DNA of 64,000 bases from Escherichia coli (lineage in GTDB: Bacteria; Pseudomonadota; Gammaproteobacteria; Enterobacterales; Enterobacteriaceae), in assembly GCF_003018255.1 (NCBI RefSeq), contig NZ_CP027440.1; one strand, given 5' to 3'. The notes below the pieces were generated by a model, which saw only the letters and a list, made by a program, of their open reading frames with translations, searched no databases and was not told the DNA's origin. The translations under genes were made by a program, and so were the position numbers. Of the stretch, positions 63,117 through 63,734 are shown piece after piece; position 1 is the stretch's first letter, and every line of letters starts with the position of its first letter.

Positions 63117-63734
63117 AACTCGCCCTTTGTCATAGACGTGCTGCGTATTGTTCAGATAATGAGAATCCATTTGTATCATGAAGCACGGTTGTTTTGCGGC
63201 AGGTTAAGATCAAAATTGCGCTGATTAATCCTGGTTATCGGGAGAAGCTCGGTGTTAAAAAGCGAATTATCTCTCGTCGCAAACAAATTATCGCATGAAT
63301 ATTATCACTATAATGAATTTATTGTTTAGCCCTTACGAATCAGGATAAAAGATAACTGGGCGCGTTTTTTAATTTTTACAAGTTAAAACTATCAGATTTT
63401 ATTGAATAAATATTGATTGTGTGATTTTGCATTCTGCTGGAAGGGATATCAGTTAATTATAAATTAAATGAATGAGAATTCTGTTTTTCATTAAGTATTT
63501 CTAACAACTTAATGTAGATATTTTAAATGTCTCCAGGCTATTTCACCAGGTTATCATTTGATGCTAACCTTCTGACACATGCAGTGGAGTTGTTGTGCAG
63601 CAGGAGTATGCTGATATGAAAGTGAATGCTAAGGATAATTTATTCGCTTAATCTATTAATTTGCTGGAAACATTTAAGGAATGAATATCCTGAATAAACC
63701 ATCATGATTTTTAGACAGTGGATGTGGAGGAAAT

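Follow-up and report, generated by a model that had tools for sequence, protein, structure and literature searches.

The AT-rich yjjP-yjjQ spacer of Escherichia coli is a divergent control region of a known H-NS-silenced, LeuO-activated locus and carries a copy of a MarA site

The AT-rich DNA in front of yjjQ is a divergent control region common to the yjjP-yjjB and yjjQ-bglJ units. According to the explanation we favor, to which we assign a probability of roughly 0.9, this two-unit region is coated and silenced by H-NS, and silencing is relieved by LeuO. H-NS would coat the AT- and TpA-rich spacer, above all positions 63300-63500, and extend into the 5' part of yjjQ. The nucleoprotein complex would keep both flanking promoters off in laboratory conditions, and the LysR-type regulator LeuO, when expressed, would bind in the spacer and relieve the repression of yjjQ-bglJ. 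An H-NS-silenced and LeuO-activated yjjP-yjjQ/bglJ control region is already known; it was characterized in 2008 and has been used repeatedly since. The new detail added here comprises the 618-bp spacer with two promoters, its composition-conserved core, a copy of a MarA site, and an element shared by Escherichia and Enterobacter. All positions refer to the window, the whole stretch of 64,000 nucleotides that was analyzed, and the features are collected in Table 1.

Table 1. Features in and around the yjjP-yjjQ spacer (window coordinates; strand "." where none is assigned).
Feature	Position	Strand	Remarks
yjjP CDS, ThrE-family exporter subunit, first gene of yjjP-yjjB	62346..63116	-	RefSeq start 63116
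yjjP<->yjjQ divergent intergenic regulatory spacer	63117..63734	.	618 bp, 33.7% GC; RefSeq annotation (identical strain and K-12)
yjjP-proximal conserved block GGTTAAGATCAAAATTGCGCTGATTA	63201..63227	.	invariant in 7 Escherichia sequences
Interval with equivalents of adaptive IS insertions	63227..63369	.	IS1 63227, IS2 63301, IS5 63369; via gap-free K-12 alignment
AT-rich core	63300..63500	.	25.4% GC, TpA 0.114 per base; sequence hypervariable, composition conserved
Alternative promoter-like site facing yjjP, TAAACA-16-GATAAT	63301..63328	-	prediction only; -10 within Escherichia-invariant block 63296-63308
Predicted yjjP promoter, ATGAAA-17-TTTAAT	63463..63491	-	Shimada 2014; unique exact match in window; prediction only
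Conserved dyad ATTAAGT-N10-ACTTAAT	63490..63513	.	perfect 7-bp arms; Escherichia-invariant
Marbox GCATCAAATGATAAC, MarA binding site	63550..63564	-	exact match to ETEC H10407 MarA ChIP-seq site; unique in window
Predicted sigma-70 promoter of yjjQ-bglJ, CTGATA-17-GATAAT	63611..63639	+	promoter scan; identical hexamers for yjjQ in Shimada 2014 Table 1
Shine-Dalgarno GGAGG of yjjQ	63726..63730	+	from sequence
yjjQ 5' part, LuxR-type regulator, first gene of yjjQ-bglJ	63735..64000	+	ATG 63735; cut by window end

The gene layout followed the RefSeq annotation of E. coli JNE23-011 and K-12 MG1655, in which dnaC, dnaT, yjjB, and yjjP, in this order, are encoded by the minus strand, followed by yjjQ-bglJ in plus orientation. 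The annotation of JNE23-011 is collinear with the window only at 1-32455 (offset +1117) and from 42377 onward. Over the last kilobase, the window is 100% identical to this strain, and almost all of the 5,426 complete E. coli genomes match it at 95-99% identity; the spacer was found in 5423 of these 5426 genomes. No annotated feature occurs inside the spacer among the 60 matches listed. Neither mobile-element ends nor REP sequences were found in it, and its repeats are only short, AT-rich, and chance-like. The interval 63180-63734, to which the first-pass annotation had drawn attention, represents the right-hand 555 bp of the 618-bp spacer. Its left edge stems from the start of yjjP in the longest ORF (63179), the RefSeq start being at 63116. 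Other Escherichia species have one-base indels within 63117-63179, which favors the shorter yjjP and a spacer of 618 bp. A "555-bp intergenic region" between yjjP and yjjQ is reportedly named in the abstract of a 2008 article by Stratmann, Madhusudan and Schnetz (J Bacteriol 190:926), and we take the interval 63180-63734, which is exactly 555 bp long, to be the same region. The abstract is said to place H-NS binding at the center of the AT-rich DNA, away from the promoters on either side. For LeuO, it reportedly gives sites at the center, away from the yjjQ promoters, and over the promoter of yjjP. Reading the bare sequence had in this case sufficed to locate a known silenced control region with exact coordinates.

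About 550 bp of strongly AT-rich DNA with many A/T tracts had been claimed to precede yjjQ, and both parts of this statement held. The GC content of 63180-63734 (555 bp) is 33.0% compared to 49.3% for the whole window, which ranks the interval within the lowest 1.9% of sliding 555-bp windows (mean 49.4% GC, sd 5.9%). Uninterrupted [AT] runs of at least 6 occur at 36/kb against a background of 11.6/kb (about 3-fold), those of at least 10 at 9.0/kb against 1.5/kb (about 6-fold), and A4/T4 tracts at 21.6/kb against 11.6/kb (about 2-fold). TpA steps are almost 2-fold enriched, with 0.086 per base compared to 0.049. The AT-richness is real and no chance fluctuation. GC content is lowest at 63300-63500, with 24-27% per 100 bp, and we regard this core as the likeliest main tract for H-NS. 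Low GC content (37-44%) also extends over the initial ~265 bp of yjjQ, up to the end of the window.

The first-pass annotation had further suggested that the region probably contains silencing nucleation sites, and had named curvature prediction as a way to check its reading. As a reference for nucleation sites we used the H-NS high-affinity motif TCGATAAATT (Lang et al. 2007, tCGATAAATT). No match with at most one mismatch occurs in the spacer. Matches with two mismatches numbered 4, compared to 2.1 +/- 1.4 in dinucleotide shuffles of the spacer (P = 0.15), and hence the motif is not enriched beyond composition. Motifs of the TCGATAAATT type are dispensable for H-NS binding, so that the absence weakens only the wording "nucleation site". 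Curvature was calculated from helix-axis paths by two dinucleotide wedge models (Bolshoy-Trifonov and De Santis) in our own implementation. In this calculation, the mean predicted curvature of the spacer was unexceptional, as 39% (Bolshoy-Trifonov) or 13% (De Santis) of equal-size windows reached or exceeded it. Local peaks were short and confined to 63201-63219, 63375-63393, and 63659-63666. The highest local value of the spacer is located in the yjjP-proximal conserved block GGTTAAGATCAAAATTGCGCTGATTA, in which 63201-63219 exceeds the 99th percentile in one model. Taken together, the lack of motif enrichment and the ordinary predicted curvature mean that the sequence by itself does not single out nucleation sites. 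H-NS recruitment is here best explained by the overall richness in AT and TpA, with no identifiable nucleation motif. Binding would then be driven by composition and minor-groove shape, and neither by a specific motif nor by curvature.

Regulation of the locus is well documented in the literature. The earlier statement that yjjQ-bglJ is silenced by H-NS and activated by LeuO agrees with PMC5025477, according to which H-NS repression holds the locus off in the laboratory. The H-NS part is also in line with PMC3950696, according to which yjjQ-bglJ is expressed in an hns stpA mutant. Both are later papers of the Schnetz group, and both cite Stratmann et al. 2008 for the control of yjjQ-bglJ. H-NS occupancy, the absence of which from ChIP datasets would have spoken against the first reading, has been published for other E. 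coli strains. In the in vivo ChAP-seq data of Higashi et al. 2016 (PMC4720273, S2 Table), yjjP and bglJ are H-NS bound; the transcription units yjjP and yjjQ-bglJ are both scored as bound and yjjB as unbound. That study covered strains K-12, SE11, and SE15 and counted a gene as bound if it was bound in any one of them; its scores refer to genes, and the yjjP-yjjQ spacer itself has no row in the intergenic table. In Table 1 of Shimada et al. 2014 (PMC3946193), the yjjP<>yjjQ spacer is marked "HNS", denoting a genomic-SELEX H-NS site, and is also among the SELEX sites of the RpoD holoenzyme. The occupancy data stem from K-12, SE11, SE15, and W3110, and the spacer in the window differs from that of K-12 at 25 positions. 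According to Fragel 2019, the LeuO consensus is palindromic and consists of two 7-bp half-sites 5 bp apart. Four candidate dyads of this geometry occur in the spacer compared to 1.4 +/- 1.1 in shuffles, which is no more than suggestive.

Low GC content might also be the mark of an ordinary divergent spacer that is rich in promoters, in which back-to-back sigma-70 promoters and their UP-like flanks account for the composition and no dedicated silencing exists. Intergenic DNA nearby is generally richer in AT than coding DNA, with a mean of 42.7% GC for the 27 adjacent intergenic regions of at least 50 bp annotated in the close strain and of 50.7% for coding sequences. Several promoter-like hexamer pairs occur in the spacer as well, although their number does not exceed that in shuffles (6 versus 3.9 +/- 2.3), and neither the H-NS motif nor the curvature signal rises above composition. 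Against this, the spacer maintains 33.7% GC over 618 bp, which is lower than in 24 of the 27 neighboring intergenic regions; two of the three that are still lower are the fimB-fimE and fimE-fimA spacers. In addition, H-NS repression and H-NS binding in vivo and in vitro have been published for this locus (PMC5025477, PMC3950696, Higashi 2016, Shimada 2014). We therefore consider an ordinary spacer to be very unlikely.

The AT-rich DNA had been described as a long leader of yjjQ, a wording that did not stand. yjjP and yjjQ have this divergent promoter region in common, and only about its last 90 nt would belong to the predicted yjjQ 5' UTR. Promoter positions in the spacer are predictions throughout. 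The predicted yjjQ promoter lies in a block (63609-63650) that is conserved across Escherichia, and the transcription start that it implies, near 63646, would result in a 5' UTR of ~89 nt. A long transcribed leader that regulates yjjQ in cis as RNA, by way of a riboswitch, an attenuator, a small RNA, or a leader peptide, would be in line with the original naming and with a 30-codon ORF at 63527-63619, for which an ORF starting from the same ATG exists in cryptic Escherichia clades. However, no Rfam family matched either strand at E<=1, no terminator-like site was found in the spacer, and shuffled sequences folded at least as well as the putative 5' UTRs (z = +1.36 and +0.60). Judged by the conserved predicted promoter, the leader would amount to just the short UTR mentioned above. 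The 30-codon ORF is not preceded by a Shine-Dalgarno sequence, and between Escherichia lineages it shows a frameshift and substitutions that are mostly non-synonymous. Regulation by a leader RNA is accordingly the least probable of the explanations we considered.

Two small ORFs, 63194-63298 and 63527-63619, are present in the spacer. They were rejected as genes; in none of the genomes among the matches listed are they annotated, and the latter was also dismissed for the sequence changes described above.

To compare the spacer between strains and species, alignments were prepared at three levels. Relative to K-12, it contains 25 differences and no gaps, and its window positions equal the NC_000913.3 coordinates minus 4,539,742. 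All but one of the differences are located in 63200-63500, with about 19 of the 25 in 63300-63500, and the remaining one is found at 63706; the yjjQ-proximal 205 bp at 63501-63705 are identical. At the level of the genus, seven Escherichia sequences representing E. coli, cryptic clades, E. whittamii, and E. albertii were aligned. Conserved blocks occur at 63150-63227 (yjjP-proximal), 63296-63308, 63487-63560, and 63609-63650, and at the ribosome-binding site. In most of 63300-63500, only 18-32% of the columns are invariant across the Escherichia species, and the segments 63225-63295 and 63320-63460 are essentially unalignable and still AT-rich. Within the family, YjjQ homologues were found at 80 loci when one genome per species was scanned. 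An alignment of the 400 bp upstream of yjjQ was conserved only at the ribosome-binding site and otherwise too divergent for footprinting, for which the Escherichia alignment served in its place; the GGAGG Shine-Dalgarno sequence is the only element kept in ~90% of 78 species. Nevertheless, the 300 bp upstream of yjjQ have 26-41% GC (mean 32.6%) in ~77 species of Enterobacteriaceae, the loci as such having 47-56% GC. As AT-richness persists while the sequence diverges, the constraint appears to act on composition rather than on sequence. A core that is conserved in composition and variable in sequence would fit H-NS reading the shape of the DNA rather than a motif, and the same pattern across the family points in this direction. 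Ordinary mutational bias in non-coding DNA could account for part of the AT-richness across species.

The family-wide comparison also bears on the origin of the locus. The AT-richness might mark where foreign DNA of recent origin begins, yjjQ-bglJ being a horizontally transferred islet and H-NS binding a case of generic xenogeneic silencing. The genes yjjQ and bglJ have 45% GC compared to 52-53% for yjjP and fhuF, and yjjP and bglJ are predicted to be horizontally transferred by some of the methods in Higashi 2016 (PMC4720273; "l/N", "L/N"). In contrast, the arrangement of yjjP diverging from yjjQ-bglJ, followed by fhuF, is shared by ~77 species, among them members of Escherichia, Citrobacter, Klebsiella, Enterobacter, Kluyvera, and Raoultella as well as Salmonella diarizonae, and YjjQ identity falls in step across these species from 98% to 55%, indicating that any acquisition predates the radiation of the family. 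The yjjP-yjjQ spacer measures 387-709 bp, with a mean of 36.7% GC, in 54 of the species; in others, 1.8-2.6 kb are inserted between yjjP and yjjQ. An intact yjjP-fhuF junction devoid of yjjQ-bglJ and the spacer was not encountered among the loci retrieved, a set anchored on YjjQ and hence limited to loci that carry it. The conserved blocks and the MarA site described below also argue for evolved, locus-specific control. Judging from this distribution, the locus appears to be ancient in Enterobacteriaceae, so that its AT-richness would not be a mark of recent horizontal acquisition, and we regard a recent transfer as unlikely, if somewhat less so than the two alternatives above.

Insertion sequences provide functional evidence in favor of a silenced two-unit control region. 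In K-12 colonizing the mouse gut, IS elements inserted into the yjjP/yjjQ spacer repeatedly, in 57% of wild-type mice (PMC4674774). Insertions of IS1, IS2, and IS5 were located 111, 185, and 256 bp upstream of yjjP, at 4600992, 4601066, and 4601134 of NC_000913.2 (PMC5094792 supplements), and yjjP expression was up ~2-fold aerobically in the IS1 clone. The recurrence of these insertions and the raised yjjP level form a pattern as it occurs when an H-NS complex is disrupted, and the recurrent insertions support the view that the spacer is functionally sensitive. In a natural isolate, we observed an IS1-mediated deletion comprising the 5' end of yjjP, the spacer, yjjQ, and part of bglJ.

A further input is provided by a marbox in the yjjQ-proximal part. 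The yjjP<>yjjQ region represents one of only 33 MarA ChIP-seq peaks in ETEC H10407 (Sharma et al. 2017, PMC5684230, Table 1), and its marbox gcatcaaatgataac belongs to the class with the strongest binding in vitro (PMC5684230 Table 1). Another MarA ChIP target is leuL<>leuO (PMC5684230). When a PWM was built from the other 31 sites, the marbox at 63550-63564 ranked 13th of ~128,000 positions; it sits within the region of the conserved block 63487-63560. Marbox-like sites of at least 10 bits occur in the 380 bp upstream of yjjQ in 30 of 79 loci compared to 13% of shuffles. Among them is the near-consensus GCACTTTGTGYTAAA, which in Enterobacter species lies 34-48 bp in front of yjjP; other such sites occur at about -200 in Leclercia, Silvania, and Lelliottia. 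As in Mar/Sox/Rob promoters, the 15-bp marbox is identical to a site that MarA recognizes in vivo and that is positive by EMSA, with binding in vitro at 0.3 uM. The spacer differs from these promoters in the position of the marbox, the center of which precedes the predicted start of yjjQ by ~89 bp and that of yjjP by ~101 bp. These distances match neither of the canonical marbox positions, class I and class II, reported by Martin et al. 1999. In the literature that we consulted on MarA and the locus, no statement on an effect of MarA on yjjP or yjjQ was found.

Given the MarA site, the spacer is a multi-input regulatory region and more than a passive silencer pad. We entertain, as a tentative and rather doubtful possibility, that the MarA site at 63550-63564 acts as a stress-responsive counter-silencer, along with the marbox-like sites recurring next to yjjP in other Enterobacteriaceae. 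The YjjPB exporter or YjjQ/BglJ would then be under Mar/Sox/Rob control, and antibiotic and oxidative stress would be linked to LeuO and BglJ-RcsB through leuL<>leuO. To our knowledge, no natural inducing condition has been described for the LeuO/BglJ-RcsB circuit, which is regarded as locked off in the laboratory. If functional, the MarA site could supply the missing natural signal for the circuit of LeuO, BglJ-RcsB, bgl, and cas. As a discovery, the control region matters little; the forward-looking part is solely the putative MarA input at a site with validated binding.

The conserved dyad at 63490-63513 marks another potential input. Its left half, the 15-mer ATTAAGTATTTCTAA (63490-63504), is kept without a mismatch in Escherichia and also in the Enterobacter cloacae complex, where its distance to yjjQ is similar although the remaining spacer cannot be aligned. 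We consider ATTAAGTATTTCTAA a candidate operator, with LeuO as one possible binder.

Several known systems resemble the region described here. The yjjP-yjjQ/bglJ region of K-12 is the same locus, aligning without gaps at ~96% identity; it differs in belonging to another strain, with 25 substitutions, and the present annotation shortens yjjP and thereby yields the 618-bp spacer. Within the window, nanC-fimB and fimB-fimE-fimA (~900-4500) likewise include long, AT-rich (27-37% GC) divergent or tandem spacers. In contrast to the yjjP-yjjQ spacer, in which nothing comparable was found, the fim region contains an invertible switch and recombinase sites; nanC<>fimB is also marked HNS in the SELEX table of Shimada 2014 (PMC3946193). 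Closest in regulation are the bgl silencers and the leuO region, which are AT-rich, silenced by H-NS in all laboratory conditions, and relieved by LeuO overexpression or IS insertion, as is the spacer. At bgl, an upstream and a downstream element are needed and a loop is possible, whereas at yjjQ only low GC content running into the coding region was observed. The bgl and leuO regions, which are silenced by H-NS/StpA and antagonized by LeuO and BglJ-RcsB, belong together with yjjQ-bglJ to one LeuO/BglJ-RcsB circuit.

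The divergent control region between yjjP and yjjQ-bglJ carries the marbox gcatcaaatgataac, an exact copy of a known MarA-bound site. This sequence was bound by MarA in vivo, as determined by ChIP-seq in ETEC H10407, where it was assigned to yjjP<>yjjQ, and in vitro at 0.3 µM MarA (PMC5684230). In that study, the site occurs only as a table entry without further discussion; leuL<>leuO, which represents the second arm of the LeuO/BglJ circuit, is among the MarA targets in the same table.

Marbox-like sequences also occurred in other genera. In Enterobacter, a near-consensus marbox, scoring 16.3-16.5 bits across loci with a matrix built on 31 other MarA sites of PMC5684230, is oriented toward yjjP, with the start codon of this gene 34-48 bp downstream. 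This suggests that the YjjPB exporter may belong to the Mar/Sox/Rob regulon in Enterobacter. In Leclercia, Silvania, and Lelliottia, the sequence GCATTAA(A/T)TG(T/C)TAAT was found about 200 bp upstream of yjjQ.

A perfect dyad was identified in the same spacer. Escherichia and the Enterobacter cloacae complex share its left 15-mer, ATTAAGTATTTCTAA, without any difference (at -245 and -221 from yjjQ, respectively), while the remainder of the spacer, unlike ATTAAGTATTTCTAA, could not be aligned between the two. This element is a candidate operator for some factor. The yjjP-proximal end of the spacer contains 1-bp indels in other Escherichia species, in agreement with the RefSeq yjjP start at 63116 (256 aa); the older, longer open reading frame (start at 63179, 277 aa) is probably wrong.

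In some Enterobacteriaceae, yjjP and yjjQ are separated by 1.8-2.6 kb of additional DNA with a GC content of approximately 47-55%. Despite this extra DNA, AT-richness was retained at those loci, as the 300 bp directly upstream of yjjQ have 28-41% GC.

Insertions of IS1, IS2, and IS5 at the sites listed were recurrent and adaptive during mouse-gut colonization by K-12 (PMC5094792), and all three equivalent positions fall within the yjjP-side half of the spacer. In the natural isolate E. coli PS3Tanimalfeces2 (L083), IS1 replaces a deleted segment comprising the yjjP 5' end, the entire spacer, yjjQ, and the bglJ N-terminus. The intact spacer is rarely missing; coverage was <80% in 13 of the 5,423 matching complete E. 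coli genomes, L083 being one spacer-lacking genome.

Features of the window and of comparison yjjQ loci (L-numbers; mostly one genome per Enterobacteriaceae species)
Feature	Position	Remarks
Marbox gcatcaaatgataac	63550-63564	minus strand
Dyad ATTAAGT-N10-ACTTAAT	63490-63513	
Indel-containing segment	63117-63179	
IS1 insertion, K-12	63227	NC_000913.2 4600992
IS2 insertion, K-12	63301	NC_000913.2 4601066
IS5 insertion, K-12	63369	NC_000913.2 4601134
IS1 replacement	L083 5081-5830	
Marbox GCACTTTGTG(C/T)TAAA	L050 3145-3159	Enterobacter cloacae; same in L051, L052, L059, L061, L063, L064, L067
Extra yjjP-yjjQ DNA	L008-L011, L025, L026, L029-L032, L034, L040, L043, L060, L065, L066, L070, L074-L076, L081, L082	Klebsiella, Kluyvera, Raoultella, Pseudocitrobacter, Citrobacter amalonaticus/sedlakii group, others
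Non-collinear segment	32456-42376	low-GC tracts ~35.0-36.8 kb and ~40.7-42.3 kb
AT-rich block	~550-4700	nanC, 1.45-kb nanC-fimB spacer, fimB, fimE, fimA switch region

Elsewhere in the window, collinearity with the close E. coli strain JNE23-011, otherwise 99.7% identical, is broken in a segment that lies within the variable restriction-modification ('immigration control') region between yjiR/symE and yjiA and includes two low-GC tracts. A second AT-rich block, larger than the yjjP-yjjQ spacer and with an intergenic GC content of 27-37%, spans nanC and fim and is a classical H-NS-bound region. Like the yjjP-yjjQ spacer, nanC<>fimB is marked as containing a genomic-SELEX H-NS site (Shimada 2014, PMC3946193).
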